64,000 bases of DNA from a virus (IMGVR_UViG_3300027743_000001:22543-86542), one strand, 5' to 3'. Numbered from the stretch's first letter, positions 1,511-64,000 are shown. Program-made: numbers and translations. Notes: generated from the sequence alone by a model not told the origin.

Positions 1511-3163
1511 TTACGGTGTAGCCGCACCGGCGCAGCAGTAGCCCGTGTCGTCGAGCGGAGAAGTGATCCACAGCGGCAGTCCGCCGACGTTGGCCACGCT
1601 CTCGAAGATCTCGGAGAACTGCATATAGTCGTTCGTCCGGACCAACGTGGAGTCCCGGATGAGACCGAGGTCCAGCGTGCCGCCGTCGAGCAGGAGCAGG
1701 GAGCCCTCAGGGTAGAGCGCCCACTGAACCTGGCTCGGGAAGTCCGGCAGAGGCACCGGAGTCGCCAGCGCGGCCTCATCGAAGGGCAGGTAGAACCCGC
1801 CCGGAGGAGCCGTAGTGGCGCCGCCGCCCGCGTCTGCCGCCGGCAGGGATGTGGTCGGCTGCCACGTGTCCAGGGACCACGTCACCGTGATGCCAAGATC
1901 GTTGAGGATACTGTTCAGCTCAGCCTCGGACATCGAGTAGTTGTCGGAGAGCCGGGCCGTCGAGTTCTCAGCCGTGACACTGTCGGAGACCATCAGGTCG
2001 CGGAACCACGACGGGATGATCGCGTGCAGCCGCTCGTTGTCAACCAGCCGGTTGACATCCCTCAGGTAGGCCGCCGCCCGGTGGACCGTGCGGATGAAGT
2101 CCCGGATCGCGCCGTACGCGACGGCCGGGCCGGTCACCAGCTTGGAGAGCGACTTGATCTGCGCCAGGAGCACCGACTCGGCGAACCGTGCCTGCTGAAC
2201 CCGGAGCATCTGGGTATTGGCCGTGACCATCTCCGGGAAGATCCGGGACTGGAGCACGCCGAACTTGATACACATCGTGATGGCCTGAACCTCGGCTGTC
2301 TGCTCCGGCGGGCAGTCCGCGCGGATACAAACCTTCCAGGTCAACTCGTCGGCCGGGTCAACGGCTTCGTCGTCATCACAGGTCCAGACAGCGACGCCGC
2401 CGGTCACGTCCGAGAGCTTAGGCCCTTGGAAGTACCGGATGCCGCCACGGTCTGCCTGAAAACCGGGGAGCGCGCCGCGCACCGGCCGGTCCGTGTCGCC
2501 GATCGTGTAGAGGTCGTAGCGGGTCTCCAGCGGAGCGCAGCAGCCGCCGGCCGCCACGATCGCCTTGGTGCTGGTCACTGCCTCGATCTTGGCCTTGTTG
2601 CCTTCCAGGTCACCGTTGTAGAGAATGCGGTCTTCCGGCGCCTTCGTTTTGATGGACGCCACGACCACCTTCTCGCCAGTGCCACCGCTCAGGCCGTGGA
2701 GGGTCCGAATGCGCTTGGTGAAAGCGTCAGCGAAGTCCTTCAGGGTCGGAATTACGGTTCCTGCCGAGTAGCCCGGGATGTCAGCACCAGCGACCACCGT
2801 ACTGGTGGGCGCCACGGTAACCGGCTCGCGGTCACGCGGAACGGTCAGAGCGCCGCCTGTCTGCTGCTCCACCGGGTCACCTTCCTTTACGTCGTTGTTC
2901 TCCTCCACAGCTGCCACCAGCTGCGGTTCCACTACTGCCGCCGGCATAGCCTCGGCCGGAGCTTCTTCCTCGCCGCCACCCTCAGCACGCTTAGCCAGCT
3001 CAGCCGCCACCTGGTCCAGCGCCTCAGCGAGGCTGGCCATGAGCGCGTCGTCGGCTGCCTGGTCGGCCGCGTCAAACGCGGCTGTGATCTCGGACTGAAG
3101 ATTGGTCAAGTCTTCGTCAGTGAGCGTGGCAAGAGCTGCGAGCTTCTCCGCGAACTCGTCCAT
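1511..3163 (-). CDS. Major capsid protein with N-terminal scaffold-like region
   Basis: Acidic helical N-terminus, IVAAGGCCAP motif, LDLGLIRDSTLVRTNDY near the C-terminus as in cluster-B-like capsids; RBS AAGGAGG; follows the protease gene. Confidence 0.85.
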   Translation of the reverse strand: MDEFAEKLAALATLTDEDLTNLQSEITAAFDAADQAADDALMASLAEALDQVAAELAKRAEGGGEEEAPAEAMPAAVVEPQLVAAVEENNDVKEGDPVEQQTGGALTVPRDREPVTVAPTSTVVAGADIPGYSAGTVIPTLKDFADAFTKRIRTLHGLSGGTGEKVVVASIKTKAPEDRILYNGDLEGNKAKIEAVTSTKAIVAAGGCCAPLETRYDLYTIGDTDRPVRGALPGFQADRGGIRYFQGPKLSDVTGGVAVWTCDDDEAVDPADELTWKVCIRADCPPEQTAEVQAITMCIKFGVLQSRIFPEMVTANTQMLRVQQARFAESVLLAQIKSLSKLVTGPAVAYGAIRDFIRTVHRAAAYLRDVNRLVDNERLHAIIPSWFRDLMVSDSVTAENSTARLSDNYSMSEAELNSILNDLGITVTWSLDTWQPTTSLPAADAGGGATTAPPGGFYLPFDEAALATPVPLPDFPSQVQWALYPEGSLLLLDGGTLDLGLIRDSTLVRTNDYMQFSEIFESVANVGGLPLWITSPLDDTGYCCAGAATP

Positions 3164-3312
3164 GAGTCTGTTCCCTCCTTATTCGGGCACACCTCAGTTG
3201 TTAGCTGAAGAGTTACGCCCGGTTGGGTAGGAGTTGTCACTACCCGGATGGAGGGTCACTCGGTTCCCACAGAGTATGACACAGCGATCTGGGTCACAAG
3301 CCGGGCTGACAG

Positions 3313-3341
3313 TTGACAGGGGTTGACCAGCTGTGTATAGT
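3313..3341 (+). promoter_or_regulatory. SigA-type promoter with nested GTTGAC repeat
   Basis: TTGACA-ggggttgaccagctgtg(17)-TATAGT upstream of the gene at 3383. Confidence 0.75.
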
Positions 3342-3382
3342 TGCCCTTGTACCGCCCACCACCACCACCCAAAGGAGTCCCC

Positions 3383-3691
3383 ATGAGTGAGAACAAGATC
3401 AACCTTGAGCCCATCCCAACCCAGCTTGACACCAAGCCCCGTCACCGGATCTATTTCCGCCTCTTCTCGGCGGCCCAGCGTCTCGTCGGAGTGCCCGGCA
3501 TGTCCCCGGCCCAGCGGGTAGAGAACCTTGAGGTCATCCGTGAGAGCCTGCTGGATGCTCTCGCGATGCTGGAGATCGACATCTCCACTCGTAAGGCTCT
3601 GGTTGACATTGAGGCGAACTTCCACCAGACGGCCGAGGAGCCCGAGCCGGCCCAGCCCGCCGAGGAGGCGGAGACCGAGCCAGACTTCTGA
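3383..3691 (+). CDS. Hypothetical protein inserted antisense in the head module
   Basis: RBS AAGGAG before ATG (MSENKINL); own promoter and downstream hairpin. Confidence 0.7.
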   Translation: MSENKINLEPIPTQLDTKPRHRIYFRLFSAAQRLVGVPGMSPAQRVENLEVIRESLLDALAMLEIDISTRKALVDIEANFHQTAEEPEPAQPAEEAETEPDF

Positions 3692-3700
3692 TCCACACGC

Positions 3701-3742: not shown

Positions 3743-3758
3743 TGCCTAATGTACCCCC

Positions 3759-6727: not shown

Positions 6728-8748
6728 CCTCTCATCACTGCTGCTACATTTCCTACATCGGCAGGACGCTCCAAGGGTTTAGAGATTTCGAACATCTGCC
6801 GCTCCAGCTCCTCCCAGGGTGGGCTGTGCTTTACCAGCTTCCGCTGCCGCTCGTAGAGCAAATGCTGCCTGTCCTTGGCCCGTTGGGACTCAGGGGTGTG
6901 GAACTGGAGTTCAAACCGATGTCCATCGGGACCGGTGATGTCGGCGTTAATGCCCTTGTAAGCGCGTCCCTCGTTATTCCAGGAGTTGCTGACATCTACG
7001 TCATAGCCCTTGGCTCTCAGCTCGTTGATCACCCGCTGAGCGTTGGCCCCGAAGTTCTCCGGGTCATAATGCAGAGTATACCGCAAGGCATCACCGATCT
7101 CACCAGCGGCCTGCTCAGGCCCGCCGGGCAGCTTGGCCCCCTTGCTTGCGATCTTCCGGACTAGGCTGCCCTCAGTCTTCAGCCTGAACTCGCCGCCGTA
7201 GAACTGTCCATTGTCTCCGATGATCTTGCTCGGGTCATAGTCGAGACCATCAACACCGCTGATCTCACTAAGCAGGCGACTAACTACCGGTTCATCGGCC
7301 TCTACGCCAGCCAGGATCTTCCTAGCCTCGTCTTGACTCTCTGCTCCTCTTGTCACAAGCGAACGACCTGTTTCCTGCGCCCCAGTGTTCACGGGTTTTT
7401 TGTTCCTCAAGATCGCAATAGCTCGTGGAGCGTCTGAAAGTTTGTCTACGATCTGCTGTGTAGGGATTATCTCGGGGAACCCGGCTGCCGGGTCGGCTGC
7501 TTTGGGATTGCCTAGGGCATCCACGTATTCGAGCTTGGCCCCGTTCGGGGTTAGGTCAACCACCTGTGCCCGACGCCGGGCGGCGCTGCGATCACCAGGG
7601 AGTGAGTCCGGATCGGAGAACACGTTCACCATGCCGAACTTCTCGATGAACTTCCCATCCTTGCCACGGGGGTGCAGCCAATCTCTCCAGTCGATGGCCG
7701 CGATGATGGCCGGGTGATCCAGCAGCCTGTGCTCCCGCGCCCGCATGATGAAGGATCCGAAGAACCCCAGCGGCTCCGTGCCGTTGACGCACAGCTGCAC
7801 GTATTGCTTGGCAGCAGCCACGACAGCTGACGCTGCCGTGGCTTCCTCAAAAGGGAGGATGACCCCGTCATCAGCAGTAGGGAACTCCGGGAGCACCTCC
7901 GGGGCCACCTTACCCAGCTGCCACTCCTGCGGGATCTTGTCTAGCGCGCCGAGAGCATGAGCCCGTTTGACCACGTACCACCGGCTATCAGGGTGCATGA
8001 TGGCGTAGCGCACGGCTATCGGGAGATCTTCCGCCCGGTTGACAGAAGGGATGCTGTTACCTGCTGCCACGACTGCGGTCTCCTGTTCAAGCGGTGCCGG
8101 AACCTCTCCCGGCATCTCGATGGTCTCTACCTCGCCCTGCGTCTTGGTGGGCAGGTCTGCCACGCTGACCGTTGTGCCGCTGGCATCGCCCGCGTCCCAC
8201 ACCGCCAGGGCGGACGGGGCAACCTGCACCAGTGACATGTCATCCAGAGCCGTGTTGCCCTCAGGGAGCAGGATCCACTCCCCGTCATACCGCACGTAGG
8301 CTCCCATGCCCGTCTCGATAATCAGTGTGACTACTGTGTTGTCGGGTGCGACCACAGCGTCCAGTTGGAGTGCCAACATTCCTCCCCTCATTATGTGAGC
8401 CTCAACCACTGCGAGCGGCTGCGGTACACCGGCGTCTGGTGCCATGGTCACTGCGTCATATGGATCCAGCGGTCGGATCCGTAGTGTCTCATCCGCTGCC
8501 TCAGGGTTTGAGAAGATGGCCGTCGCCGTCAGGACACCGCCGCCCATGTCAACCGGCTCGGAGATAAAGGTGCCCCGGGTGTTGTCCTCATCTTCATCCC
8601 ACACCAGCATGAGACCGTTGTCGCCGGTCTGAATCTCGACGTTGGCCCCGTAGCGGATCGAGGTCGTGTCGTACCGCGCCGAGGTGACCGGATCAGTCCT
8701 GTGGATGGTCACCTCGATGATGGCCGGATTAGGGACTCTCATGATCAC
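6724..8748 (-). CDS. Head-region protein with C-terminal RelA/SpoT-type alarmone synthetase domain
   Basis: EFRLKTEGSLVRKI, DALRYT, YKGIN, FELQFHTPES and HLLYE motifs in the last ~150 aa. Confidence 0.75.
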   Translation of the reverse strand: MIMRVPNPAIIEVTIHRTDPVTSARYDTTSIRYGANVEIQTGDNGLMLVWDEDEDNTRGTFISEPVDMGGGVLTATAIFSNPEAADETLRIRPLDPYDAVTMAPDAGVPQPLAVVEAHIMRGGMLALQLDAVVAPDNTVVTLIIETGMGAYVRYDGEWILLPEGNTALDDMSLVQVAPSALAVWDAGDASGTTVSVADLPTKTQGEVETIEMPGEVPAPLEQETAVVAAGNSIPSVNRAEDLPIAVRYAIMHPDSRWYVVKRAHALGALDKIPQEWQLGKVAPEVLPEFPTADDGVILPFEEATAASAVVAAAKQYVQLCVNGTEPLGFFGSFIMRAREHRLLDHPAIIAAIDWRDWLHPRGKDGKFIEKFGMVNVFSDPDSLPGDRSAARRRAQVVDLTPNGAKLEYVDALGNPKAADPAAGFPEIIPTQQIVDKLSDAPRAIAILRNKKPVNTGAQETGRSLVTRGAESQDEARKILAGVEADEPVVSRLLSEISGVDGLDYDPSKIIGDNGQFYGGEFRLKTEGSLVRKIASKGAKLPGGPEQAAGEIGDALRYTLHYDPENFGANAQRVINELRAKGYDVDVSNSWNNEGRAYKGINADITGPDGHRFELQFHTPESQRAKDRQHLLYERQRKLVKHSPPWEELERQMFEISKPLERPADVGNVAAVMRG

Positions 8749-11700
8749 ACCTCATAGCTTTCCGGCAGATCGAGCAAGTTGCGGAGGTTCGGAGGCATGT
8801 ACACGGGAGGCAGATCGGATGGCCGCATGGTCTTGGCCTTGGCTATGGTGACGATGTACCGCTCTAGCGGAACCCCGTTGATAGAGACAATCCCCTTGGC
8901 CTTCAGCTTCGCGATGGCCGAGTCGACTTCTTTCTGGCTCGGAGCCGCGATCATGCTGGCCTGCTCCGGAGCGATGCCACCGCTAATGTAGTAGTCCTTG
9001 ATGTTCTCCCATACCGTAAGGCTCCGCATGATGTTGCTGCCATTGTCAGGATTCCCGTACACATCCTCCAAGGAACCGCGCATGTCACCGATGCGACCGT
9101 AGAGAGCCTCAGGGTGGTGGTAAATCATGAGTCCACCGGAGATATATACAGCCTGGTCGTTGTGGTCCGGGAGGTAGTTGTACTTCTTGGCTGAGGCATA
9201 GGCGCCATGTCCGGCGTACACGCTGGAATCGTGGACTGCGGACTGCCCGAGTCCCTTACCAGTGGGAGCGTCCACGGCGCCCTGAAGCCGTTTGGTCATG
9301 CTGTTGACGTTGCCATACAGTGCTGTAGACGCAATGACATCCGCGTTGTTGCGCTTCGTGCCTTTGACCACAAGGTTCATCTTGCTCTTAGCCTTCATGG
9401 CAGCGATGGCTCGCTCAGACCAGAAGTAGGAAACCTTACCGATCGACTCATCAACGCCCACTCGAACGTCCTGCCAGCCCAGATCAGTGATACCCATCCA
9501 CTCTCCGGCCTTCTTGAACATCTGCTCATCCGACATGCCCTGTGTGTTGTCAGCGTTGGCCTGGTCGAAGCTGACCATAGTGGACAGGAAGACCCGCGCC
9601 TGCTGCTTGGCCGAAGACTGCGTCATGGGGGAGTAACCACCCAGGCCCAGCTCAGCCATGGCCGCCGAAAGATCCCCATCGGTTGCACCCTCAGGAAGGA
9701 AGATGTTGGTCATTCCAAACCGGGAGTCATTCTTGTACTCGCTGGCCGGGTCGATCACCTCTATGACAACCCCGTTGCTAGCTACCAGCCGCACATTGCG
9801 GGACGTGCCGAAGTCAGGAAATGCACTCTTCGCCAACGGGACACCCTGTCCCGGCTCCACATACAAGGTCCCGTCCGCCTGCATGCCAGACAGGCCGCCG
9901 TCTTGGGCGACGGTCCATCCCCTGGCCTGTGCCGACTGGCTCAATGAGAACTGGCCGGTCTGAAGTACCTTGATCTTGGTGGGGTCCCACGCGGTCACGG
10001 TGTAGGTGTGACCAGCAGACCACGGGGTAGTGACCGTGGACCCATCAGACAGGCTCTTGAAGGTCACTATCTTGCCGCCGGTAGCCGCGTCGTCCTGCAC
10101 GTCCACCACTTCGTAGTTCGGCGGGTTGACGCCAGAGTTGTCCGGCCGCCACTGGCTCTTGAGTTCCGGCTGGCTGCTGCTTGAAGGCCGGATAGATACC
10201 CTCTCGCCTACCGCGATGCTCTCCGTAGGCTTCTTGGTGCGTACCCAGTCGCCCTGCTCCTGTGTGTCACCACTAGCCAGGTTGCTGGCAAAGGTCGCAC
10301 GCTGCTCCTTGGAGAGAGCGAAGATCACCCGGTTGTACTTCTTACCGGACGGCCCGATCGCGCGGGTCGTGAACATCTCCCCACCCCGGATGCCGGTGGA
10401 GTTGGTGACGATCGCCCGCTGCTTGCCGTCCTGCAAGGTCTTGCCCAGCGCCTCGGCCGGCGTGTCAACCGCCAGCGCCATTCCCTTAGGAACCTCCAAC
10501 GGGGCCAGCGGCGCCTGGTAAGGGCCGTACTCTTCCGTGTCGAGCCGGAGCGCCGTGACCAGCCGTGTCGACTTCTCTCCGCTGCTGGTGAGGACCACCG
10601 CGCTCTGCTTGTTCTTGCTGAGGCTGATGATCTTGCCGTGCATCGGACCCTTGCCGGTGACGTGCATGCCCGCCGTAGGGATGTAGCCGTCCTTGGTGAG
10701 CGGGCCGCCCCACGCCAGCACCACGTCCTCACTAGGTGCGCCCGGCAGGCTGGGCTTTGGCTCGGCAACGGGAGGCTTAGCCGCGTAGACGGCATAGTTA
10801 GACGGCATCTTGTTGGTGAGGAACATGGAGTGCTTGCCTTGGTCAACTGCTACGGCGCCAGGCTCATGCCCCACAGAGTAGTGGTGGAAATCTATAAACT
10901 CACCATCTATCTGCACCATCTGCATGTATTCATTGGGCTTGTGGGGGTCCCCATAGGACACATAAATCCAGTCCCCAGGCTTCAGGTCCATACCCTTGAA
11001 GTCGGAGGCTAGGGTGATCTCCATGGTGCTCGGGTGGGGTGCCCCGATCGCGTCGTTGGCACCAGAGGCTGCCGTCTGAGGGAAGGCGCTCGGAGGAGCA
11101 ACTGACAGGTCAACCTTCTGCATGCCGGAGAAGTTGCTGCCATAGACTGCGAACTCAGCTTTCTCTAGCTTCTTGGTTTCGTAGTCCTGGTAGAGCTGGT
11201 ACATGAGCGGGTCGTCGGGGTCCGCGTTCGGGTCCGACACATAGACGTTGTACAGGGTCTTGTAGAGCTGCTCACCCGGCTGAAGCTCATACGTCTTGCC
11301 GTTGAACTCAATCCCAGTGACTGCCTCGACATCAACTATCTGCGGGCTGGCACTGACCGGACCAGGCCCGGAGAGGTCCGGGGGAGTCAGTGCGTCGTAC
11401 TCTCCCAGCGTTCCCTGCGCGACAGACATCTTGGCATCACCGATGCCGCCCTGCGCGAGGAAAGCCAGCACAGTGGACTCGTCATGGCCAACAGTGGTGT
11501 TGATAGTTCCGTCAGCGGAAATCGCGTTGTACTTGCCATCGGGCTGCTTGACCAGGTACTGATCCGGGATCGTCGGAGTCTGGATCTTGATGACGATGTC
11601 ATCCGGCTGAGTCGTCAAGCCGTTGAACGTGCCGCCCGTAGGTCCGACATTCGGGTCGGGGTTGAACAGCTTGTTGAACATCCCTTGAACGGAGGGGGCT

Positions 11701-14700
11701 TCAGCATCAGAAGCAGCCTGCGTGGGGAAGGGGGGCGGGTCACCCTCCGCCTGGTGGACCAACGTCTTCTTGTCGTTCGGCACCAGCCCCATGACGTGAT
11801 GGGTGATGGAGGCGCCGCCCAGCTGGCCGTCATCCTTGATCGGCCACCAGGATGCACCGGGAGCGGACTGGATGTAGTAGGTGTTTGAGTCAGATATGTA
11901 GACAACAGACTCCCAGCTGCTTACCTCATAGAAGCTGTTGATCTTATCGCCAGTGGCAACCTGATCCGGCACAGCAGGGGCGATGTCAACCACGTCAACC
12001 TGGTTGCTGAACGGGTCATGGTAGAGGTTGACCTGGTAAGGGCTGCCGTCTGAGTTGTACTTGTTGACGGTCGTGCTTACATCAATGGAGTCATCACCGT
12101 CTATGTGGTACCAGTTGGAGCTGGCCGGAGAGGCGATGTAATACTCATTGCCGATCTTGGCAACCTGGTTTCCGGACTGAACGGATACCTTGTACCCGTT
12201 CGGGAGAGTCAACTCCTCAGTGCCGGTCCCCTGGTGGAAGTTCTTCAGGCCCATGGGACCCTCTTGGTCGCCATCACCGACCCACGTGCCGCCCGTTCCG
12301 GCAGCGTTCACTGTCCACATCTGCCAGCCGGAAGTGGTGTGCCGACGCCAGAAGGTGCCCGACCCAGAGACAAAGATCGGATACTTCGCGTCGTCGTACT
12401 TGAGCGCCTGGTTGAGTGCCCAGCCGGCCGCGTCCTGGCCCTGGTTGCCGGTCAGCTTGTGGTCGTTTGTGGTACCCGGCCCGGCCTTCAGCTTCGTGGC
12501 CATATCATTAGCCGCGTCGATCTGGCCCTGCGTCAACTCAGCATCTATGTAGTCGGACCCCTTACGGGTCACCCGGATACTCACGTTCGGGCCGAAGTCC
12601 TGTTTGGACAGGAGCTGAGGTGAAACTGTGCCAGCGTCGACTACTACAGCTACCTTGTCATCTCCCAGAGGCAGGTTGTTCTCCACCACGACGAATAGGT
12701 ACTGGCCAGCTTCAACCTCATCTCCCGGTTCCAGGTGGGGGATGATCTGGTGAGCCGGAAGATAGGCACCGTCCTCATCGAAGATGCTGGTTTCGGTCTT
12801 CTCCACGAGCGGAGCATCTGCGTCGTACGTACCAACGGTGCCATCTGAGAAGGCCAGGTAAACAAGACTAGACCCTTCAGGGGCATCCACAAAGGTGACC
12901 ACTACGACGTCATCGCCGTTGTGCACCGACTCGCCCGGCTTCAGTCCCTGCGCGGGGACCATCGGGCCGCCGTGCGGACCCGTCGCCCCCGCAGACTCCG
13001 GCAAACCAGAAGACTCCGGGATGACCGTGGGGGTCGTGTCAACCGTGAAGTCATTCAGGACAGTTTTCAGTACGGTGAATGGAGTTTCGTTCTTGTCTAT
13101 CATCCGCACCGTCGTGTCGGTGATAGCGATGATCTCGTAGCTGTTGTCGGGGCTACTGATCGGGCTGACCTTGTGGCCGACCTTCAGCACGCCACTGTCG
13201 ATCCAGGCCGCCAGCGTCTTCGCCTCATCCACCTGGCTGACGGCCGTGACCGCCGGAGCCATGGGGGAAGGTGGCTCCGGCACCGATACCGGCTCAGGCT
13301 CAGGCTCCGGAGTCGTGTCAACCGTCGCTCCGGCTTCCTCCGTGATGGTCACCGTGCTGACTGACTTACGCTTGCGGACGCCGGACGTGTTCTCGATGAA
13401 CACGAACTTGCCGTCCGGGGAGATCATCACGATCTTGCCCTGGTGGCCGTCCTTGGCCAACGCCGTCATGCCGAGCTTAGGAACCTTGCCGTCCCCCGTC
13501 ATCGGGGTCTTGGCGCCCACCACGTTGGCCGCCGGGGTCTTGCCAGGCTGCGTCAGGGTTGACGCCGCCTTCATCAGCTCCTTGCCGTCTTCGTCCTTGA
13601 CGACAGCGCTGTAGCCCTTCTTCTTGACGTAGGTGTAGGTCTTCCCGTCCTTCTTGGAGACCACCTTCGCACCGGGTCCGGCCTCGGTACCGTCACCCAG
13701 AAGCATGCCCTTGTCATCGCTAACGACAGACTTAGCCTGCGCCTCGGCCGCCGCCTTGATGTCTTCCTTGACCTGCGTCTCTACGGTGGCAGCCATGCCG
13801 GTCTTCTGCGGCGGTTCCGATATCTCCACCTCAGGCTCCGGGACGGGCACCGGCTCCAGCAGCTGGACGATCTCCTCCACCTCGGCCTCGGCAGCCTCGG
13901 GGAGGTTCGGCTTCTGCGCTTCCGGCGGAGGCGGATCCCAGCGCTCCACGATGTAGGGGCCGGATCCCAGGGCGTAGGTGTCCAGGATTACCGATGTGGT
14001 GTTTCCCTTGTCCCGAAGCATGACCTTCTTTTTGGCGGGGGAAACTCCCATCACCTCATAGGTGTGGCCGTTCGGGTCGGTGATCGTGTCCCCGCGCTCG
14101 AACTTGATGGTGTGAAGATCAGCAGCATCCAGAGCGGCGCCATGGTGTGGCCGTTCCAGGTTGGTCAACGGGCTCTGGTAGTGGACATCCGTCTTAGAGC
14201 CGTACTTGTCCTTCAAGGCCCATCGCTGGTCTTGCAGCTCGTCCGGCTCCATCAGGCTGCCGTCAGTCAGGTCAACGCCGATCCTGATAGTTCCCGATCC
14301 GATCCGGACGTAGTCGCCAGGTGACGCCATATCCAGAGCTTGTCCGAGGTTCATCGGGAACCACTTGCGGGACAGGCCGTTGTTCTCGGCTACGTCCGGG
14401 ACGTTTATCGGCTTGGAGGCTTCCGGAAGCGGGAGTCCATAGTGGTCAGCAATGTACCTACGGCGCGACTTGAGCGTGTCAGCCAGGGACTGAGGTAGTC
14501 CACGCTCAGAAACCAGGTCATCAATTTCTTCCGGAGAGATAGCCAGAACCCGGACGGCGCCATCCAGCTCATCCTCCTTAGGCATCACGTTCTCGCCGAA
14601 GATGGCAGCCTTCTTACCGGACCGCATGGTCTCCAGCTCCATCACCTTGTTACCGAAGGCGCCGCCCTTAGGTTCGCCTTGAGCCCGGTAGGTGAGAGCC

Positions 14701-32367: not shown

Positions 32368-32418
32368 GCGGTTGACACAGGAAACCCCCCGGCACACCCG
32401 GGGGGTTTCTTCGTGCAC

Positions 32419-40240: not shown

Positions 40241-40468
40241 TCCCGCCAGTGCGTGTCAACCGCGTCTGTGATCTCCTGCCAGCACCTGATCAACTCGTCG
40301 TTCGTGATCACTGTCTTGTGGCCAGCCGACACGATGACAGCCGCGCTTGCCGCCTTCACGCTGAACTCGTTGAGTAGCGCGATGAACTCCGTCTTGGTCA
40401 TTCCGCGAGACTAGCACGCGCTCGGCTGTGTGGTTGACACGTGTTGGCAAGACTGCTACTATAGGTTT

Positions 40469-41994
40469 ATGACCAAGACAGAGATCGACGAGCAGCGGGA
40501 CGAGATCCTCCGGGACGCGCTGGATCAGTACGTGACCAACATCGACCTAGAAGATGAAGAGACTTCGCTGGCCGACCGCGTGAGGTACAACGTCGCCTCC
40601 GCCATGCTGGACGAGCTGAACAACGCTTTCGTGGTCAGGATGGGCGCGCTGTGAACGAGCTACTTCTCCGGTCCGTGAGCGGCAACCGGACCCACATCTA
40701 CTCCCGCGAGACGGGCACGCGGTTCGGCCGCCGCTACATCGCGGTGTGCGGCGCCGCGATGTTCTCGTTGGCGGCAACCGGCCCGGTGGCAGACTGCCCC
40801 CGGTGCCTGGCAAAGAAGGGCGCAGCATGAACTACGCGATGTCGTCGACCGGGCTTTTCCACCTGGTTGACAAGGGAGCAGCGGCAACCCTGTGCGGCTC
40901 GGCCGTGGTGTGGGAGGTCTCGCAGATCAAGCACGAGACGGACGCCGTCGTGTCGGAGCGCCACCCGATCCAGGATGAACAGGCGCTGGACTGGCTGGCC
41001 GAGCACCCCTGGGATCTGTGCCGCACCTGCAAGGCGGCGGCGCCGTGAGCGGGCTGGTGCACGTCGACTACCCGCACGAGCCGGGATATCTCTACGACTG
41101 TCCCGCGTGCGAGCGGGAGTGCAACTGTCCGGTGATGCAAGACGACATGATCTGTCTACACTGCTCTATCATCGTTATCCGCGAGATGGGGATGGCCAGC
41201 AATGACTAACGGCTACAGCTACGCGATGTCCGGCACCGGGCTGTTCCACCACCTGGTGTTCCCGGACCGAACCCGTTGCGGCATCCGCCGGGTGGGGGAC
41301 GTTCCTCAGCAGACCTCAGACGAGCAGGCCAACAGTTGGCTTGCGCGCTACCCGCACGATCTGTGTCTGGCGTGCAAGAGGCTGGCCCGGGAACAGGGTG
41401 TGGCATGACCAACCTCTACGAAACCCTGCACCTGCGCTACGAACGCGGGTCATTCGTGGCAACCGTGCACAGGAAGATGACCGGCCGCCGGCCGTACTTT
41501 ATCGAGGTGGTTGACACGGGCACGGGAGACAAGAGCGTGTACGCGACAGACCTCAGTCGGGACGGCATGCGTATGGCCGTGGCCCGGATGCGGGCCGCCG
41601 GCTGGCGTTGGGCGCCGTCCGTTGGGCCGTGGTCGGGATGACACACGTGCCGCCGGCCGCTGAGCTGCTGGCCGAGAACGTCAAGCTCCAGCAGGAGTTG
41701 CTCCGGGCACAGCAGGAGCTGCTCCGGGCACACGGGCTGCTCCGGCGGTTCGCCTCGGGGAACTACAACTTCCGCGCGTTGCGTCAGCTGTGCGAGGAAG
41801 CAGAATCGCTGGTGTCCGGGGCCGGGGCTTGGGTCTACGGCGCCGGCAACTCGTACGCCGATCTCGATGAACGGGTGGGTGTCAACCGGCAGGTCGTTGT
41901 CAACCAGGACGGGAAACCGAGCGTGTTGCATACGCCCAAGAATCCTGTCGAGGGCTGTCGGGGTTGCCGGGAGAACGGGTGGGCGGGGGCTTAG
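40469..41994 (+). other. Coupled small genes, several Cys/His-rich (incl. paralogs 40828-41048 and 41202-41408)
   Basis: Leaderless start after TTGACA-17-TACTAT; GTGA/ATGA overlaps. Confidence 0.6.
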
Positions 41995-47047: not shown

Positions 47048-47186
47048 GTCCCGGTTGACAGGCCGCCCCACGGGGGCGGCCTTTTTTGTGGCCCACGCCA
47101 CACTCCCCGTGTTGGCATCCGTTGACAAGAGCAGCTAGACTAGAGATGCGCGGCCGGCCGGTCGCCCCTCCCGGAAGGAGCCCGTC

Positions 47187-48498: not shown

Positions 48499-51042
48499 TC
48501 AATGTCCCGTGCCCTCCGGCAGGCCATACCGGACCGCGCCGCCGTCTTCTTGGATCTTGACAAGCCACTTCTCCCGCAGCGCATGCAACAGCGCCGGCTC
48601 CACGAACGTCGACCCGTCCCGGCCCAGGCCCTTCTGTAGGTCGCGCCGCGTGCACGGCCCTTTCCGGCCGACCAGAGCCACCAGACGCTGCGCGCAGCTG
48701 GTTACCTTGTTCGGAGCCTGCTTGACCGCCACGTGTGCCGCCACGGCCCTGTCTGCGAACTCCTGTTTCTTCTCGTCAGACTCTTGGATCTTGTACTGAC
48801 TGGCCAGGTGGAGCAGATCGTCGCGATCCTGACACGAGACCGACCACACCAGCTTGGCCAGCTCCCAGTCTTCAGCTCCCACATGCTCCCGGCCGACCGC
48901 GAGCACCATGACCACCGCGATCTTGCAGAGCGTGACCATCTTGTGCGAGTCGAAGTCGGAGACCGAGCCCGAGCCCATGTCAACCGCCCGGCCGCGCTCT
49001 GCCCGCAGCTTCTCCTGCCGCCACTCACGCAGCTCCCGCGTGATCTCCTCCGCGAACGTGACTATCCCCGGACAGTTGGCCGGGCCGCCCTCCAGATCTA
49101 TGAACCCCTCGCCCGGCCAGTTCGGCAGGTCCCCAAGCGCAGGGGCGAACGGGTTGTTGACCCACCCGTACAGGAAGCGCTGAGGCGTACCCAGCCCCAC
49201 CTCAGCCGCTAGATGCCGGGCCACGTGGGGTTGGAGGTAGAGCACCAGGCCGGTATGCAGCATGCCGGCCGGCACCAGCCGCGTTGTGTCCTGACTAGCG
49301 TTGGCCTGACCTATCGTCGACCCCGACCAGGCCGCCCGGAGGTAGGCCATAGTCGTGGACGCTTTGCGCTCTTGTGCCTTGAAGATCGCTTCTGCCTCAT
49401 CTGAGTTGAAAAAGACGTTATAGCGAACCTGCTCACGCACCACCTTCGCCGGAGCCCCCGCGCCGGCCGCGATCTCCCGCTTGCCCATGACTGACTCGGC
49501 CACGCCTTCCCCGGAACCCAGGCCGATGCCGTCGTAGAAAGCGCCCTCCGCACGCAGCCGAGCAGGGGTCTTGATCAACCCACGGGCCACGTTGTAGAGG
49601 ATCGACTTGCCGTCTGCCGAGTCCCCCGCCAGCACCACGAACAGGTTAGGCGTACCAATGCCACCGAACCCCGAGCGGAACTTACGTTCGTGATGGATCA
49701 TGCTGGAGAGCCGAGCCAGCTGGAACAGGAAGGTTGCCTTAGGCCCAGCCATCTCAGCCTCAGCTGCCTGTTTGACCTTGGCCCAGATCTCATGCGAGCG
49801 CCACACCGGCTCCAGTGGATCTTGTGACACCCAGCTAGGCGGAGATTCTCCCGGAGGACCCACGGGAGGACCGGTTGACACGGCCACCTGCTGCCCGGCC
49901 GGCTCCACGACCACGGCCGTGACCACCTGAGCCGCGAGCTTCTTCTGCTCCAGCTGCTCCAGCTTCTCCCGGACCTTGGCCACGGCCGGCACAGCTGGAG
50001 ACAGTTCGTCATCCTCCAGCAGCACATCCTCGCCCAGAGACTCGTACAGCGCCTCCGGCACATCACAAGGATCCGACTCCTCACCGGCCGCCTCCAGTGC
50101 CTCATGCAGCGGCCTCCCGAGAGACCGGCCGAACTCCGCCACGACCCCGCGACTCTCGCCGGCCATGACCAGCTGCCACTCCGCGTACAGCGTCGAGAGC
50201 GCCTCGTGCAGACCGGGATGCCCTTCCTTCCTGAGCCTGCAGAGGTTGAGCTGCGCAGCGATCATGGTGTCGTGCCGCGTGCCGCCGTGTGCGGCGCCGA
50301 GCTTGTCCAGCCACACCCCGAGCGCGGTTGACATGCGATGGCAGGGACCCTCACCGTCCCCGCCACCAGCGAGCCACGCGAGCCCGTCCTCTGCGCCGGC
50401 CCAGTCCTGAGCGTCCGAGGCTGTCTGGCCATGCAGTGCCATGTAAGTCAACAGCTTGACCCGGACGGCCGCCGGCAGCACGGGTATGTCAACCACGCGC
50501 GGGATGCCCACGACCGAGTTGCCCTGCAGCCACTGGTAAGGATTGCCTAACCCCGGGTGAACCGAAGGCCCTACCATCGCGTACCTGTGATGCCGCTGAA
50601 TGACCTCCACGCCCGAGCCAGGCCCGAAGTTGGTAGGCCACCGCGCCGGCTCGGCCAGCCGGTAGAGGTAGATCCCAGAGAGCGAGTCCCACCCACGGGC
50701 GGAAGTCCGGAACGTCTCCGGCAGCCACGCGCCGTCTAACGCTTCCTCTATCGTCTCGGCCCCACGCTTCGCGTCGTAGGCGTCCACGTCTATGCCGATC
50801 ACGTCCGGACCCAGCCGAACGGCCACGTTGTAGGGAGCGCCCCAGTATTCCTCTCGCAGGACCTTGGCCACGTACTTGTCTACGTAGGAGCCATCGTTGC
50901 CGGTCAGATCAGCAGGTACGCCCGTCTTGCCGTCCAGCACAGGGATAGGTGACCACCCGCGCGCAGCATAGGTAAGAGCGACATCAGAGTAAAAACGGGG
51001 TGTTGCGCCTGAGGCGCCACCAGCTACACTACTATCTGTCAC
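48499..51042 (-). CDS. Bifunctional primase-polymerase with C-terminal helicase-like domain
   Basis: YAARGWSPIP, IGIDVD, GPSVHP; Walker-A-like GDSADGKS and DE. Confidence 0.85.
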   Translation of the reverse strand: MTDSSVAGGASGATPRFYSDVALTYAARGWSPIPVLDGKTGVPADLTGNDGSYVDKYVAKVLREEYWGAPYNVAVRLGPDVIGIDVDAYDAKRGAETIEEALDGAWLPETFRTSARGWDSLSGIYLYRLAEPARWPTNFGPGSGVEVIQRHHRYAMVGPSVHPGLGNPYQWLQGNSVVGIPRVVDIPVLPAAVRVKLLTYMALHGQTASDAQDWAGAEDGLAWLAGGGDGEGPCHRMSTALGVWLDKLGAAHGGTRHDTMIAAQLNLCRLRKEGHPGLHEALSTLYAEWQLVMAGESRGVVAEFGRSLGRPLHEALEAAGEESDPCDVPEALYESLGEDVLLEDDELSPAVPAVAKVREKLEQLEQKKLAAQVVTAVVVEPAGQQVAVSTGPPVGPPGESPPSWVSQDPLEPVWRSHEIWAKVKQAAEAEMAGPKATFLFQLARLSSMIHHERKFRSGFGGIGTPNLFVVLAGDSADGKSILYNVARGLIKTPARLRAEGAFYDGIGLGSGEGVAESVMGKREIAAGAGAPAKVVREQVRYNVFFNSDEAEAIFKAQERKASTTMAYLRAAWSGSTIGQANASQDTTRLVPAGMLHTGLVLYLQPHVARHLAAEVGLGTPQRFLYGWVNNPFAPALGDLPNWPGEGFIDLEGGPANCPGIVTFAEEITRELREWRQEKLRAERGRAVDMGSGSVSDFDSHKMVTLCKIAVVMVLAVGREHVGAEDWELAKLVWSVSCQDRDDLLHLASQYKIQESDEKKQEFADRAVAAHVAVKQAPNKVTSCAQRLVALVGRKGPCTRRDLQKGLGRDGSTFVEPALLHALREKWLVKIQEDGGAVRYGLPEGTGH

Positions 51043-51234: not shown

Positions 51235-51243
51235 TTGAGGGGC

Positions 51244-52593: not shown

Positions 52594-52955
52594 GGTGGCT
52601 CCAGTGTTTGACGGGTGACTTGCTTACATGGGCAACTATACACAGCCTCCCAACCACTGTCAACAGATCCCACCAACCAATCTCCCGGTTGTGCCTGTGA
52701 CTGGAGAGCTGTAAGTTGCCTGTGTAAATCCCCCCTACGAGAAGGGCAACACCCATGTCAGGAAACAAAGTGGTTGGCTCCGCTGGAGCTGCCACTGCCA
52801 CACTGCCCATCACCGGCAGTCCCACCATCACGCTGGTCATCGGATCCATCGCGATGCTGGCAACCGGACTGCTCCTGTTCAGGGCTGGCCGAATCCGTAA
52901 GAGCGACATGGCCTAGTTGGTTGACAGGCCCGAGATACCGAGCTAGTCTGAACGA

Positions 52956-59698: not shown

Positions 59699-60007
59699 TC
59701 ACTCGGCCGCCAGGTACCGCAGGAACAGCTCCACACGCTCGCTGGCACCCTCACGCTCATCCGAGCTGGCCACGTACGCCTCCCAGCTGCCCGAGTCGAC
59801 TACGAACGCCGCCAGCTGGCCGCGCCGGATACGCCAGGCAGTTTGAGAGATCACGCGCAGCCGCTCCTTAGGGCCGGCCCCCACCAGATACCACTTGCCA
59901 GGCGTGGCCTTGCACTTGGTTGCGACAGCTACATACGGCTCGAAGAGGATAGTGGCGCGCTGCGATGCTCGCGCCGGAGGGTTGGCTACCTTGGTGATTT
60001 TGTCCAT
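59699..60007 (-). CDS. Basic hypothetical protein, possibly DNA-binding
   Basis: Leaderless after TTGACA-17-TACGCT; PGKW...AWRIRRG; heads an operon with 59394-59702 and 59053-59364. Confidence 0.55.
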   Translation of the reverse strand: MDKITKVANPPARASQRATILFEPYVAVATKCKATPGKWYLVGAGPKERLRVISQTAWRIRRGQLAAFVVDSGSWEAYVASSDEREGASERVELFLRYLAAE

Positions 60008-60367
60008 GCCAGCTAGCGTACGTCTCTTGCCAACGTTTGTCAACCGGGGTAGTGTACGACACATGCCTGAGCGACGCTTGGTCCGGATCTGGTGGGGGAG
60101 CTACGTCGCCTTCCGGGAGGTTGAAGACGTCCGCATACCGATCCTGGAAGGCAAGCCTGTGATCACGACCCACCTGTACTACCCAGAGGACGGCAAGGCA
60201 CTGTGCGGAGTAACGCTCGCCGGCCGGCAACAGGCATCTTTCACTACCTGTGAGTGCCAGCTGTGTTGGTTGACAGCCCAGCGGATACAGGAAGGACCCC
60301 GCAAGCCGTTGCTGGCTCCGCGCTGGAAGCCATACGCCTACGGGGACCACTGGTCATACCGGTTCGT

Positions 60368-61042: not shown

Positions 61043-61046
61043 CTCG

Positions 61047-62933
61047 TCACCTCTCTTTGCCTAGGATCAAGTCTATAAGGCCCTGCCGATCCTTGTCCCG
61101 GATCACCTGCTCGATGGCCGTTTCGTTCTGATCGAGCCGCTCCAGCTGCGAGAACTCCACGGTCCCCTCCGTGAAGTAGTCGACCACGCTGAGGGAGCTG
61201 TGCTTCTCCGCCCCCGGCCGGTGGAACCTGGCCATGGCCTGCGTCATGGTGGGGGACGACCAGGAGCGCTGAACCATCAGGATAGTGTCGGCCGCCGTCA
61301 GCGTGATCCCCTCGGCCGCCGCCCCGAACGTGCAGAAGATGTACTGCCGCTTCCCAGACTGGAACATCTCCATTGCCCGTTTGATCTCGTGGTCCGGGAG
61401 CCCGCCCGCGATCACCGCGATCTCATTCCAGTTGGTCCCCATACGGGTGCGCAACACGTCCTCTGTCAACCGCAGGAGCTTCTTGCTCTCGAAGAACACG
61501 ATGCACTGCGAGTCGCCGAAGTCGCCCGAGGCGATATCGTCCACTACCGCGTCGACCTTGCACGACGGCATAGCCAGGTTGATGGTCACGCGGGGTGTCT
61601 CCTGGCCCGGGACGACCGAGGTGATCACCGAGCCGTGCGCCTGAGCCAGCATCATCAGCCGGCCGGTCTTGATCATGATGTTCTGCGCTGTCAACCGGTC
61701 TACCGAGCCGTCCGGCTGCCGGAGCCACGCGACCATCTGGTCCCGCATCTCGACGTAAGCCTTCTCCTGCGCCTTGCCCATGGCCACCGTCCGGACCAAC
61801 GAGCCGCCGCGTTGGATCTCTGGCAGGTTGAGAACGTCCGCCTTCAGAACCCGGCGGGTGATCGCCTGGAACGTCGCCTGGAACTCCTGCTCCCGCTCCT
61901 GCTTCAGACCCAGGACCCGCTCGAACCCCGCGTTGTCGAATCCCTTCCGGCAATACCAGTCCACCCAGCTGCTCTTGACCGGCCACGCAACCGGGTCCAG
62001 CCAGTGCAGCGGGGACCAGCAATCGTCGGGGGTACGAGATACCAGGGTGCCCGAGAGCCCCCACCTACGGGCTTCTGGACGGGCTGCGGAAAGACCCCAT
62101 AACGCCTGAGCGTTCACAGTCTTCGCATTCCGGATTCGGTGGATCTCGTCCGCGACGATCACCGACCAGGGAATCGCGTTGAGTTCCTTCTCGTGTGCCT
62201 GGCACTGCGCCGGCTTGACCGAGCCCTCTTCAGAGAGCTTTGGCCCGCCGCACTTCTCGCACTTCTTCAGCGCGTGGCCCGGGAACGCACGTAGCCGGGT
62301 GTGCGTGCGCATGGCCTCCCAGCCGATGATCACGATGTCGCCCGGCCCCACCTCGGCCAGCTGCTTGCGCCGCTGCATCAGAGTCCCACCGACCACTACC
62401 GCCCGAGCCCCCGGCCCCAGGTACTCCGCGATCTCAGACTGCCACCCCCAGCGGACCTTGTTCGGGCAGACGACCAGGACCGGCCCCGCCTCCAGCAGAT
62501 CGTCAGCTGCCAGAGCCGCCAGGACCGCCCGGGTCTTGCCGACCCCGACCTCACTCAGCAGCAGCCGGCCCGGGATCTGAGCCTGCTCTGTCAACCACAG
62601 CGCGTCCTGCACCTGGTGCGAGTAGAGGCGACCCCCCACATGGACAGCCTCCCGCTGCGCGGACTGCTCCAGCAACTCAGACCAGCGCGCCTTGTCCTCG
62701 GCCACCCACATCCCCACGGCAACGTCCGGCTGCAGCGGGATCCGGAGGTAGCGCGCGATGTCACCCAGCGCCAGGACCGCCGGCCGCTTGGCCGGGATAG
62801 TCCAGCACGCCCCGTCCTTCCAGTAGAGCGCGCCAGGGATCTCCTTGATCCTGCCCAGCGTGGCCGGGGGAGACTTCACCGCCAGCCGGCCGGAGTAGCG
62901 GTTGCCATCAGGGACGAACGAAACGTTGATCAC
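61047..62933 (-). CDS. SNF2-family helicase
   Basis: EVGVGKT, VADEIH, LSGT, EGITLT and QAMARFHR motifs. Confidence 0.9.
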   Translation of the reverse strand: MINVSFVPDGNRYSGRLAVKSPPATLGRIKEIPGALYWKDGACWTIPAKRPAVLALGDIARYLRIPLQPDVAVGMWVAEDKARWSELLEQSAQREAVHVGGRLYSHQVQDALWLTEQAQIPGRLLLSEVGVGKTRAVLAALAADDLLEAGPVLVVCPNKVRWGWQSEIAEYLGPGARAVVVGGTLMQRRKQLAEVGPGDIVIIGWEAMRTHTRLRAFPGHALKKCEKCGGPKLSEEGSVKPAQCQAHEKELNAIPWSVIVADEIHRIRNAKTVNAQALWGLSAARPEARRWGLSGTLVSRTPDDCWSPLHWLDPVAWPVKSSWVDWYCRKGFDNAGFERVLGLKQEREQEFQATFQAITRRVLKADVLNLPEIQRGGSLVRTVAMGKAQEKAYVEMRDQMVAWLRQPDGSVDRLTAQNIMIKTGRLMMLAQAHGSVITSVVPGQETPRVTINLAMPSCKVDAVVDDIASGDFGDSQCIVFFESKKLLRLTEDVLRTRMGTNWNEIAVIAGGLPDHEIKRAMEMFQSGKRQYIFCTFGAAAEGITLTAADTILMVQRSWSSPTMTQAMARFHRPGAEKHSSLSVVDYFTEGTVEFSQLERLDQNETAIEQVIRDKDRQGLIDLILGKER

Positions 62934-63223
62934 TAGTCTCCCCGGAACTCTTCATCAAGGTCTTCATCAGACTTGGCCTTGGCCGGAGGCAGCGGCAGGA
63001 ACCGTTCTTCGATCTCTCGCTCCTCCCGAAGCTTGGCCTTGATCCGGATGTGCGCAGTCGAGTCCGTGAACGTGAGCCCCTGTAGCCGGCCCCGCCACGT
63101 GATCTCCGCCTTCTTGATGTACCTGGCCCCGTAGAGATCCGCCATGTCCAGCGCAGCCTTCAGCTCATCGACTGTCATACCCACGTCGCGGTTACTGGCC
63201 GACGCTGTGAACTCAACTCCCAC
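62933..63223 (-). CDS. Hypothetical protein
   Basis: Coupled between the resolvase and the helicase. Confidence 0.55.
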   Translation of the reverse strand: MGVEFTASASNRDVGMTVDELKAALDMADLYGARYIKKAEITWRGRLQGLTFTDSTAHIRIKAKLREEREIEERFLPLPPAKAKSDEDLDEEFRGD

Positions 63224-63653
63224 GGCTGAACTCCCCTACATGATTGCTTGCCCACAATAGACAGTGACGTAGCGCGTCCCGCGCGTGGCCCCGCCCCTTA
63301 GGGACAGGATAGTGTTTCATGCGCTCCTCAGTCGCGAACGCCTTCGCATCTCCCGGATCCTGTAGCCAAATCTTGTTCCCATTCAGGTGGCACTCGCCCT
63401 TCATCCAGCCGATCATCTCAAGGCTGGCCGGTTGCCAGGTCTTGTACCCGGGTCGCGGCTTGAAGGACTCAGTGACCACGCACAGACTCGCGAGGGATGT
63501 GCTGAGCACCTTGTGAAAGTAGTCGATGAACTGAGTCTGCGTGTGCTCGTGCCACTCCAGCACGCTGATCTCTTCAGGGCCATAGGCCACTGCCCGGATG
63601 ACCCCCGTCATGACCCCCGGATCAACAGCCACGATCGTGACCATCCTGACCAC
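63213..63653 (-). CDS. RuvC-like Holliday junction resolvase
   Basis: IVAVDPGVMTG, VVTESF and HARDALRH. Confidence 0.75.
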   Translation of the reverse strand: MVRMVTIVAVDPGVMTGVIRAVAYGPEEISVLEWHEHTQTQFIDYFHKVLSTSLASLCVVTESFKPRPGYKTWQPASLEMIGWMKGECHLNGNKIWLQDPGDAKAFATEERMKHYPVPKGRGHARDALRHCLLWASNHVGEFSRGS

Positions 63654-63661
63654 CTGCCTTC

Positions 63662-64000
63662 TTACTTGCAGTCTGCCCATGTTCGGCCGATCACTGGAGT
63701 TGCCGTGATGGAGACCCCGTACTCCTGCTTGTCAACAACAGCGTTCATCACCTCGCGGATCGTGTCAACCGCCTCGATGACTGCCCACGCCGGCATCTCG
63801 AACAGGACCTCATCGTGCACCGGCAAGATCATGTACTCCTCCAGCCCGGCCTGCTGGAGCCCGATCAGCGCCTTCTTCAGGATCTCAGCCGCGTGGCCCT
63901 GCGTGGCCCAGTTGGGGAGCTTCCGGATCTCCTGCCGACGCTTGAGCTTGAACCGCCGGCCGGTCGGGGTGGTCACGTAGAAGCCTTCAGGGTTGAGCTT
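63662..64000 (-). CDS. polA: DNA polymerase I (family A), C-terminal part
   Basis: T.TGRR, N..TQG.AAEILK and PVHDEV motif C; runs off the window end. Confidence 0.85.
   Translation of the reverse strand, partial: KLNPEGFYVTTPTGRRFKLKRRQEIRKLPNWATQGHAAEILKKALIGLQQAGLEEYMILPVHDEVLFEMPAWAVIEAVDTIREVMNAVVDKQEYGVSITATPVIGRTWADCK

Follow-up and report, generated by a model that had tools for sequence, protein, structure and literature searches.

What is the role of a nucleotide word that recurs 102 times in a single phage genome, in both orientations and mostly inside genes? The question is raised by a 64,000-nt stretch of viral DNA (IMGVR_UViG_3300027743_000001:22543-86542; hereafter the window), which comprises bases 22,543–86,542 of a single 86,542-bp viral record that is classed as complete in IMG/VR, with terminal repeats. 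The source genome is labeled G000, and Pfam and PHROG scans of its proteins identify a tailed phage; the likely source sample is a freshwater sediment of 2017. An earlier note on the window had described its saturation with the octamer GGTTGACA/TGTCAACC and had proposed a selected, dispersed self-mark or binding lattice. The analysis described here bears out the selected and dispersed mark, which is shared by related phages of about 85 kb and by at least two small integrative islands, and it points to a protein encoded by these elements as the possible reader of the word.

Copy number and spelling of the word

Counted on both strands, GGTTGACA/TGTCAACC has exactly 80 matches in the window, compared with a mean of 1.84 (standard deviation 1.15, maximum 5) in 100 dinucleotide-preserving shuffles, none of which reaches 80. 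The earlier note had estimated about 80 full copies, its 15 example coordinates are all among these matches, and its expectation of one to two copies from composition agrees with the shuffles; the GC (guanine plus cytosine) content of about 65% that it had assumed was slightly too high, with 0.60–0.65 along the window and 62.3% in the entire genome. For the heptamer GTTGACA (TGTCAAC on the other strand), of which about 100 copies had been claimed, 106 window matches were counted vs 6.67 expected. In the whole 86.5-kb genome the octamer is present in 102 copies and is the commonest of all octamers. C or T precedes it in 99 of these copies (78 of the 80 in the window), which gives YGGTTGACA as the full word, and a logo of the 102 copies contains no further conserved base within 30 bp on the flanks. 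The window holds 32 copies on the + strand and 48 on the − strand (Table 1). The letters of the word include TTGACA and also GTTGAC, which is taken here to be a HincII-type site (GTYRAC). No description of this word was found in the open-access literature searched, including searches for dispersed or evenly spaced phage words.

Related phages and a respelled word

The enrichment is shared by relatives of the phage, which were drawn by their capsid proteins from viral, metagenome, and genome collections. G001 carries 109 copies in 86 kb, G002 carries 28 copies in 39 kb (this genome being only 26% complete), and the complete genomes G414, G415, G416, and G417 (83–90 kb, ∼70% GC) carry 66, 70, 79, and 59 copies, respectively; the word is dense in several further fragments too. 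It is kept from 61% to 71% GC and across capsid proteins that are 41–47% identical, and the consensus of the GC-rich lineages is extended to S-Y-GGTTGACA-C-G, the GGTTGACAC(G) form.

Every basal lineage bears the word in a FastTree capsid tree that was midpoint-rooted on a distant group. The derived capsid group is split into a first branch with L012, L023/L024, and L203, which bear the word, together with the nested L176/L177, which carry GAATGACA, and a second branch formed by a word-less clade that contains G003, G004, G005, and others. L176/L177 have 14 copies of GAATGACA in 21.9 kb vs 0.76 expected, and 12 of the 16 possible coding positions are used. An IQ-TREE run with 24 rows was compatible with a single origin and carried a long-branch warning. 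Taken together, the trees are read here as suggesting that the word was already present in the ancestor of a deep clade of ∼85-kb phages, with one switch to GAATGACA and one loss.

The idea that each relative has a word of its own was rejected for the word-less clade, since G003, G004, and G005 contain no octamer of comparable score. Two other repeated words were likewise rejected as lattice words: CCTGGGCG in G412 has 34 of 40 copies on one strand with random spacing, and CCGAGCAAAGGA in G004 forms one-strand repeats of leader or ribosome-binding-site type. About 15 copies of the latter precede start codons by a few bases, without exception on the same strand (L037-L042; e.g., 97883, 99915, and 102718, − strand), and look like a start-associated leader or ribosome-binding-site repeat. 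A lytic vs temperate lifestyle, considered as the cause of word loss, gave no contrast, with no integrase or resolvase found in either the bearers or the word-less group.

Selection at the DNA level

Gene calls for G000 were made by a crude method based on GC content at third codon positions and comprise 116 genes over 81% of the genome; some genes are missed, so that a copy outside called genes is not necessarily intergenic. On these calls, 87 of the 102 copies lie inside genes and 15 outside, and the copies use four of the five combinations of frame and orientation that avoid a stop codon. The gene calls and the site list agree with the earlier claim that copies occur in capsid, portal, helicase, and primase genes, in both orientations and in several frames.

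The coding sequences contain 88 copies, compared with 7.04 ± 2.33 (maximum 14) after within-gene shuffling of synonymous codons with the protein kept and 2.28 ± 1.49 (maximum 7) after codon permutation (200 shuffles each), and the enrichment thus stays under the codon-preserving shuffle that the earlier note had named as a check. Synonymous codons permit the word at 139 coding positions in G000, and 87 of these (63%) carry it vs 4.3 expected from codon usage; G001 uses 82 of its 127 such positions and G002 uses 26 of 61, whereas the word-less relatives use 2 of 48, 3 of 89, and 0 of 30. Peptide contexts compatible with the word occur at ∼2.0 per kb in bearers vs ∼1.0 per kb in word-less relatives, and this halving argues that the amino-acid sequence of the bearers, as well as their codon choice, is bent toward the word.

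Between G000 and G001, which have 79.5% nucleotide identity, 53 of 75 aligned word sites are identical vs 25.6% of all aligned octamers. In distant bearers, homologous positions are kept at 1 of 17, 2 of 28, 4 of 32, 0 of 20, and 1 of 30 sites (8 of 127 mapped in all), so that the lattice, and not any one site, persists. No compensation of lost sites was detected between G000 and G001: of 24 G000 sites that are not conserved, 7 lie within 150 nt of a different G001 site, with a chance expectation of ∼32%. On the evidence of these sequence comparisons, the word is under selection at the DNA level, and this selection is purifying but allows positions to turn over.

Orientation and spacing

The copies in G000 have no link with transcription, with 54 of 81 sense and 33 of 58 antisense possible positions used (Fisher P = 0.29), and in the four GC-rich relatives 31–50% of the possible positions are used in either orientation. 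The strand order of copies is random (runs z −0.99 to 1.28), and no bias relative to the genome strand was found. Spacing is far from random in the GC-rich relatives: the coefficient of variation (CV) of the gaps between neighboring sites is 0.49–0.58 in G414–G417, and none of 5000 random placements, and none of 5000 random subsets of coding-compatible positions, was as even. This evenness appears only when both strands are pooled. The CVs per strand are 0.67–1.17 (mean 0.81), and random thinning of a pooled-regular series gives 0.79 (arithmetic on the same gaps), so the selected unit is a stretch of duplex that carries a site in either orientation. G002, L169, L182, L184, and the GAATGACA lineage are also even (P = 0.0008–0.024), as are the gene-dense halves of G000 and G001 (P about 0.003). 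Of the spacing and strand tests proposed in the earlier note, pooled evenness was strong in the relatives and borderline in the source genome, and strand bias was absent. The selected property is a site of either orientation within every ∼1–3 kb of duplex. Word pairs at most 30 bp apart were found at 118 or more loci in viral contigs and amount to chance pairs or local tandem arrays.

The even spacing bears on the possibility that the word has no function and was spread by biased repair or gene conversion and then tolerated. The fast turnover of positions between distant bearers agrees with such a process, and a drive model has been argued for DNA uptake sequences in the part of the literature drawn on here (PMC1939737). 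Drive alone, however, gives no even spacing among permitted positions (0 of 5000 subsets), leaves the conservation of sites above background and the bending of protein sequences unexplained, and still needs a sequence-specific agent; there is only a slight chance that this explanation is correct.

Primase, modification, and repressor readings

Evenness in the pooled series argues against readers of one strand (for example, a primase or a nuclease of the Chi type) and favors a duplex-binding reader of limited range. If the copies were start sites of the phage Prim-Pol (primase-polymerase), read on single-stranded template at Okazaki-scale spacing as in NrS-1, the density of one site per 0.8–1.5 kb would match the scale of lagging-strand fragments, and the window does encode an 847-aa Prim-Pol with a helicase. 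The NrS-1 Prim-Pol recognizes the 8-nt sequence 5′-TTTGGTTA-3′, which shares GGTT with the word, and each system pairs a word of ∼8 nt with an enzyme of the phage; a lattice across the whole genome is not mentioned for NrS-1 in the portion of that source used here (PMC8718748). A signal read on one strand should nevertheless be even on each strand, and the per-strand series fit random thinning. Nor is the enzyme conserved among bearers: the G001 counterpart is 22% identical in the primase half and 31% in the helicase, and G002 has a different Prim-Pol of 353 aa, which has an orthologue (31% identical) in the word-less G004 and no BLAST similarity to the G000 type. Searches with the G000 Prim-Pol found no relative among the viral contigs and no sequence match in PDB, so that its kinship with the NrS-1 enzyme is hypothetical. 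A 7.5-kb integrative island with seven copies in the bacterial genome G586, described below, has no primase among the scanned open reading frames (ORFs), which are part of the ORFs of the island. The use of the word by a primase is accordingly rated as decidedly unlikely.

The word could instead be a target of base modification or of site-specific nicking, with copies kept so that every stretch bears one. Asymmetric words of 6–9 bp are typical of several modification enzymes, and even coverage suits a mark that is needed near every point. The methyltransferase families PF01555, PF00145, and PF02086 are, however, absent from all five complete bearers, no such domain was found among ∼70 G000 proteins in Pfam scans, and the sites lie on both strands in random order, whereas known nick motifs sit on one strand. 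Modification or nicking is therefore quite improbable, and the suggestion of a phage methylation target in the earlier note finds no counterpart in these three enzyme families, while a host or novel enzyme might act on the word.

The earlier note had also offered a roadblock, which could be of stoperator type, with repressor sites that block transcription genome-wide as in Cluster A mycobacteriophages. Many asymmetric copies are here spread across a phage of Actinobacteria-like type, and TGTCAA is presumably common to the word and the consensus of L5. According to the part of the source drawn on here, the Cluster A immunity repressor (the gp71 type of L5) is monomeric with two helix-turn-helix-type domains, which makes a monomeric reader plausible, and its stoperators lie in promoters and short intergenic spaces with an orientation that follows transcription (PMC9283540). 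Those sites are 13-mers in little over twenty copies, in contrast to a 9-mer that is present here at ∼4 times the density, predominantly inside called genes and free in orientation. The absence of a link with transcription speaks against the roadblock; an integrase was not found in the bearers G001 and G414, in which a temperate lifestyle is therefore not evident; and no helix-turn-helix family appeared in the Pfam scans of ∼70 G000 proteins, while no profile search for repressor homologues was made. It is hardly probable that the lattice consists of stoperators. The loading-site lattices of ParB and KorB resemble it in that evenly spaced sites suit a protein that loads and then spreads or slides, but their sites are palindromes read by dimers and the word is asymmetric; the ParB_N domain (PF02195) was absent from six of six complete bearers.

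Host chromosomes

Enrichment was sought in 401 genomes sampled evenly from one phylum, the Actinomycetota; the tally includes 15 unpublished genomes (G129, G010, G183, G400, G235, G057, G248, G027, G345, G157, G091, G277, G327, G352, and G097), which count only toward this overall result. None of the 401 was enriched, the maximum being 50 copies of CGGTTGACA in 2.7 Mb, or 0.018 per kb vs 0.72 per kb in the phage. The word is also at background in four metagenome-assembled genomes that hold related contigs, and the chromosomes of G708 and G586 have 24 and 40 copies of YGGTTGACA per 3.3–3.6 Mb vs 19 and 22 copies of the reversed control word. The contrast between self and host implied by the earlier note is thus upheld in this sample, in which the copies of two bacterial genomes cluster in an island (13 of 24 in G708 and 7 of 40 in G586). 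The highest count of the full word among the 401 genomes, 83 copies over 2.7 Mb and many contigs vs 18 of the reversed control, was seen in G297 (Actinomycetota) as a mild chromosome-wide excess.

These counts bear on a word specified by the host, of the Chi or DNA-uptake kind, which the phage would have copied or gained by the same molecular drive. The anatomy of the word closely matches that of Haemophilus uptake sequences, which, in the part of the account available here, have an asymmetric core of ∼9 bp, occur about once per kb and mostly in ORFs, and are evenly spaced without orientation bias (PMC1939737, quoting Smith and Karlin). The weak flanks and the use of several frames extend the likeness to the uptake sequences of Pasteurellaceae (USS, uptake signal sequences) and Neisseriaceae (DUS, DNA uptake sequences), in which many interchangeable copies mark DNA as own; evenness here is strong in G414–G417 and borderline in G000 and G001. 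Uptake sequences are dense throughout the chromosome of a competent bacterium, whose own uptake machinery reads them, whereas the present word fills phage genomes and islands, with the chromosomes searched at background, and does not imply an uptake system. Chi is likewise short and asymmetric, and it signals to a processive enzyme that DNA is own. Its enrichment in the host chromosome and its activity in a single orientation have no parallel in the present data, and a Chi of one orientation predicts evenness per strand rather than in the pooled series. A host-specified word is for these reasons very improbable.

A candidate reader and the integrative islands

Only one gene follows the distribution of the word. 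In tblastn searches, P0001, a 200-aa protein encoded upstream of the window (Table 1), was present in seven of seven bearers (G000, G001, G002, and G414–G417) and in none of three word-less relatives. A profile search of 301 Propionibacteriaceae genomes with P0001 gave four matches. Each of the two strong matches is located in a small island, immediately upstream of a tyrosine integrase. In G708, 13 of the 24 YGGTTGACA copies fall within 18 kb at the P0001 homologue (Poisson P = 3e-15), and in G586, 7 of the 40 copies fall within 6.6 kb at the homologue (P = 1e-9); each is the only cluster of its genome, and all but one of the island copies have the Y. Apart from one weak 60-aa match, the two islands have no other gene in common with G000. 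The islands are independent support for a putative tie between the word and a subfamily of P0001.

The G708 island carries type I restriction genes, GmrSD, an AAA_25 protein, and a resolvase, and the G586 island (∼7.5 kb) lies between a TetR gene and glmU, prs, and L25. Restriction-type defence cargo such as that of G708 is of a kind seen on phage satellites. The type I restriction system of G708 (C10:33139-40920, L243) looks complete, with HsdM, a 389-aa ORF, and HsdR next to a GmrSD-type nuclease. A P0001 homologue was also noted in G297, at C21:55-381.

Several observations weigh against P0001 as the reader. Its restriction to bearers rests on three word-less relatives of one clade, and may therefore be a phylogenetic coincidence, with G002 only partly complete. 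P0001 belongs to no Pfam, PHROG, NCBIfam, or PADLOC family and is a candidate binding protein through its co-occurrence with the word. A model built from 29 sequences (pLDDT, predicted local distance difference test, 74) has no significant fold match, the best Foldseek hit having E = 0.047 and the best VIA hit Z = 4.4; weak Foldseek rows with LAGLIDADG nucleases and the C-terminal domain of T4 MotA (E = 0.05–0.6) assign no fold, and a PDB profile search and a protein atlas gave no match. Four viral contigs with P0001 homologues have neither a copy of the word nor a comparable lattice of another word, and six of six inspected actinobacterial genomes with weaker homologues have no local cluster, so that at best one P0001 subfamily would be tied to the word. 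By eye, the alignment separates word-associated proteins, with [QHW][VL]RAR..[EDQ]D, from three word-less ones, with LVRAR..GD; this split comes from few columns and has no tree behind it. Nor is the neighboring gene, P0002, a consistent partner. P0002, which has two tandem C2H2 zinc fingers and adjoins P0001 in five bearers, was rejected as the reader, given that the fingers are absent in G416, that it is not beside P0001 in G002, and that its helix residues vary. Such fingers are uncommon in phages, and the N-terminal domain of P0002 may be HicA-like, as judged by eye.

Promoter-like copies and a host protein as reader

A conserved host protein might also read the word as a sink or recruiter, the candidates being region 4 of the housekeeping sigma factor or a WhiA-type regulator, the latter having a GACAC motif. 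In that case the chromosomal sites of the protein itself would need to be rare. TTGACA within the word is a perfect −35 element, the same word is found in phages of 61–71% GC, as a very conserved host reader predicts, and the longer GC-rich form GGTTGACAC(G) is another point in its favor. Region 4 of sigma is encoded by none of five bearers, so that the host enzyme presumably transcribes these genomes. A −10-like hexamer (TANNNT, 16–19 bp downstream) follows four of the 102 copies vs 1.2 expected, and three of the four resemble real promoters (Table 1). Two of these have the same spacer, GTTGGCAAGA, and this shared sequence is possibly part of a second operator-like element, longer than the word, that serves a few early promoters.

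The remaining 98 copies are, however, without a −10 element, and a few copies are probably promoters while the bulk are not. Orientation has no link with transcription, L176/L177 swapped the word for GAATGACA at the same density, a change that weakens the −35, an entire sister clade lacks the word, and a host reader does not predict the clustering of copies in islands beside P0001 homologues. The RNA polymerase decoy proposed in the earlier note, like a general promoter role, is not supported by the few −10 elements, nor by a sister lineage with a poor −35. The respelling as GAATGACA, together with the constancy of the word over 61–71% GC, fits a reader that travels with the element, and a conserved host protein as reader is regarded as unlikely.

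Proposed explanation

Each of the promoter, primase-site, Chi, uptake, stoperator, ParB, and methylation readings disagrees with a feature that was tested, methylation being judged by three enzyme families only. The explanation that is preferred here, at a little under an even chance, is a duplex reader encoded by the element with an effect of limited range and with P0001 as the leading candidate. In this view, selection would maintain YGGTTGACA as a recognition word, and the word would label the duplex DNA of the phage, as well as that of its ∼85-kb relatives and of two or more small integrative islands. The reader would be a sequence-specific protein, best sought in the P0001 family, that recognizes the word in the duplex, probably as a monomer because the word is asymmetric. 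Once bound, the DNA would be distinguished as own in a process that can operate anywhere along it, the candidates being the selection of molecules to be packaged, the shielding of DNA against a nuclease, and the outward spread of a coat or silencer from the individual sites. The presence of the same word in integrative islands suggests a step common to elements that use the same machinery, which might be selective packaging or escape from a nuclease. The analysis establishes the word, its selection and spacing, its phylogeny, its absence from the hosts searched, and its co-occurrence with P0001, whereas the binding itself, the identity of the binding protein, and the consequence of binding are inferred. 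Weighing against a limited-range reader in the source phage itself, G000 is only borderline even (CV 0.85; P = 0.058 for random placement and 0.059 for subsets), and G001 is less so (CV 0.89; P = 0.12 and 0.10).

Other features of the genome

Pfam and PHROG identifications in G000 include the major head protein, portal, large terminase, a 2730-aa virion protein, Prim-Pol/helicase, SNF2 helicase, family A polymerase, and a recombination set of Sak4, exonuclease, and SSB; the features with their coordinates are collected in Table 1. The 2730-aa protein (8745-16937, −) is encoded among the head genes and combines a peptidoglycan-binding domain and a 2′-5′ RNA ligase-like domain near its N-terminus; it is kept at 28–45% identity in both bearers and word-less relatives. 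A 115-aa protein (35412-35759, +) carries an N-terminal methylation motif like that of type IV pilins (PF07963, E = 1.4e-9), with 70% identity in G001 and no match found in the other relatives. Two AMIN-like domain proteins (PF24837) form a paralogous pair (39671-40240, +, and 42004-42549, +). Three genes at 42642-45738 (+), for a 693-aa HATPase_c_3 protein, a 70-aa ORF, and a 268-aa ORF, have no counterpart in the close relative G001 and may be an accessory cassette. The C-terminal end of the family A DNA polymerase (63662-64000, −) runs off the contig end, which fits a terminal-repeat or circular assembly. When isolated phages were searched by blastn with the terminase region, no more than four short matches (73–74%) were obtained, to terminases of Streptomyces and Arthrobacter phages, and tblastn of a 600-aa fibre-like ORF gave none.

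Table 1. Coordinates of the word copies and of features discussed in the text (window positions unless genome coordinates are stated).
Feature	Coordinates	Strand	Remarks
Lattice of 80 GGTTGACA copies	2038..63770	both	pattern count in window
Copy starts, + strand	2050, 3601, 3892, 5077, 8037, 15921, 17479, 23994, 27679, 28753, 30801, 31893, 32370, 37775, 37940, 38995, 40432, 40865, 41509, 43127, 45111, 46584, 47053, 49873, 50326, 52919, 54825, 55076, 57112, 57884, 59510, 60268	+	
Copy starts, − strand	2038, 4882, 5556, 8547, 10463, 11984, 13037, 13316, 14820, 18455, 19371, 19560, 20179, 23264, 23805, 30023, 30123, 30176, 31295, 31573, 33160, 33603, 34058, 34307, 36153, 39336, 39398, 39527, 40254, 41880, 41898, 43624, 45582, 46250, 47795, 48978, 50487, 51140, 53298, 53535, 55606, 56197, 59065, 60038, 61464, 61689, 62589, 63763	−	
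Major head protein	1511-3163		word sites 2038, 2050
Portal	16940-18439		word site 17479
Terminator-like copy	32370..32412 (genome 54912)	+	copy, then G+C-rich hairpin and T run, by eye
Promoter-like copy	40432..40470 (genome 62974)	+	TTGACA, 17 bp, TACTAT, ATG close by; spacer GTTGGCAAGA
Terminator-like copy	47053..47090 (genome 69595)	+	copy, then G+C-rich hairpin and T run, by eye
Prim-Pol and DUF3987 helicase	48499-51042	−	847 aa; PF09250, PF13148, PHROG primase families; four word sites 48978, 49873, 50326, 50487
Possible promoter	52919..52955 (genome 75461)	+	outside called genes; TAGTCT 17 bp downstream
Promoter-like copy	60006..60045 (word at 60038; genome 82580)	−	TTGACA, 17 bp, TACGCT; same GTTGGCAAGA spacer
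SNF2 helicase	61047-62933		word sites 61464, 61689, 62589
P0001	genome 5793-6395		16.1 kb upstream of window start; 200 aa; conserved N-terminal domain of ∼115 aa, then basic tail
P0002	L045:4946-5782 (genome coordinates)	+	outside window; two tandem C2H2 zinc fingers (PF00096, E = 2.2e-6); adjoins P0001 in five bearers

Significance

The extent to which permitted positions are used means that a DNA-level signal strongly bends codon choice in these phages, and even protein sequence. The word is also a simple signature for finding this phage family, and possibly its satellites, in metagenomes and genomes. The small integrative islands are possibly satellites of word-bearing phages. More tentatively, and with the balance of probability against it, the word may belong to a portable self-marking system of actinobacterial mobile elements, with a P0001-family reader, lineage spellings such as GAATGACA, and lytic phages and islands that both write the word evenly, by which element DNA would be told from host DNA at any point along the molecule. 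Phages that degrade or ignore host DNA, and their satellites, need a distinction between own and host DNA, for which the textbook labels are modified bases and single pac or cos sites. If the proposal holds, a word written about 100 times through the genes and kept, with one respelling, down to 41–47% capsid identity would be a different answer to the problem of own DNA, and a portable self-marking system of this kind would be the sequence-based counterpart of base modification as a phage label of self.

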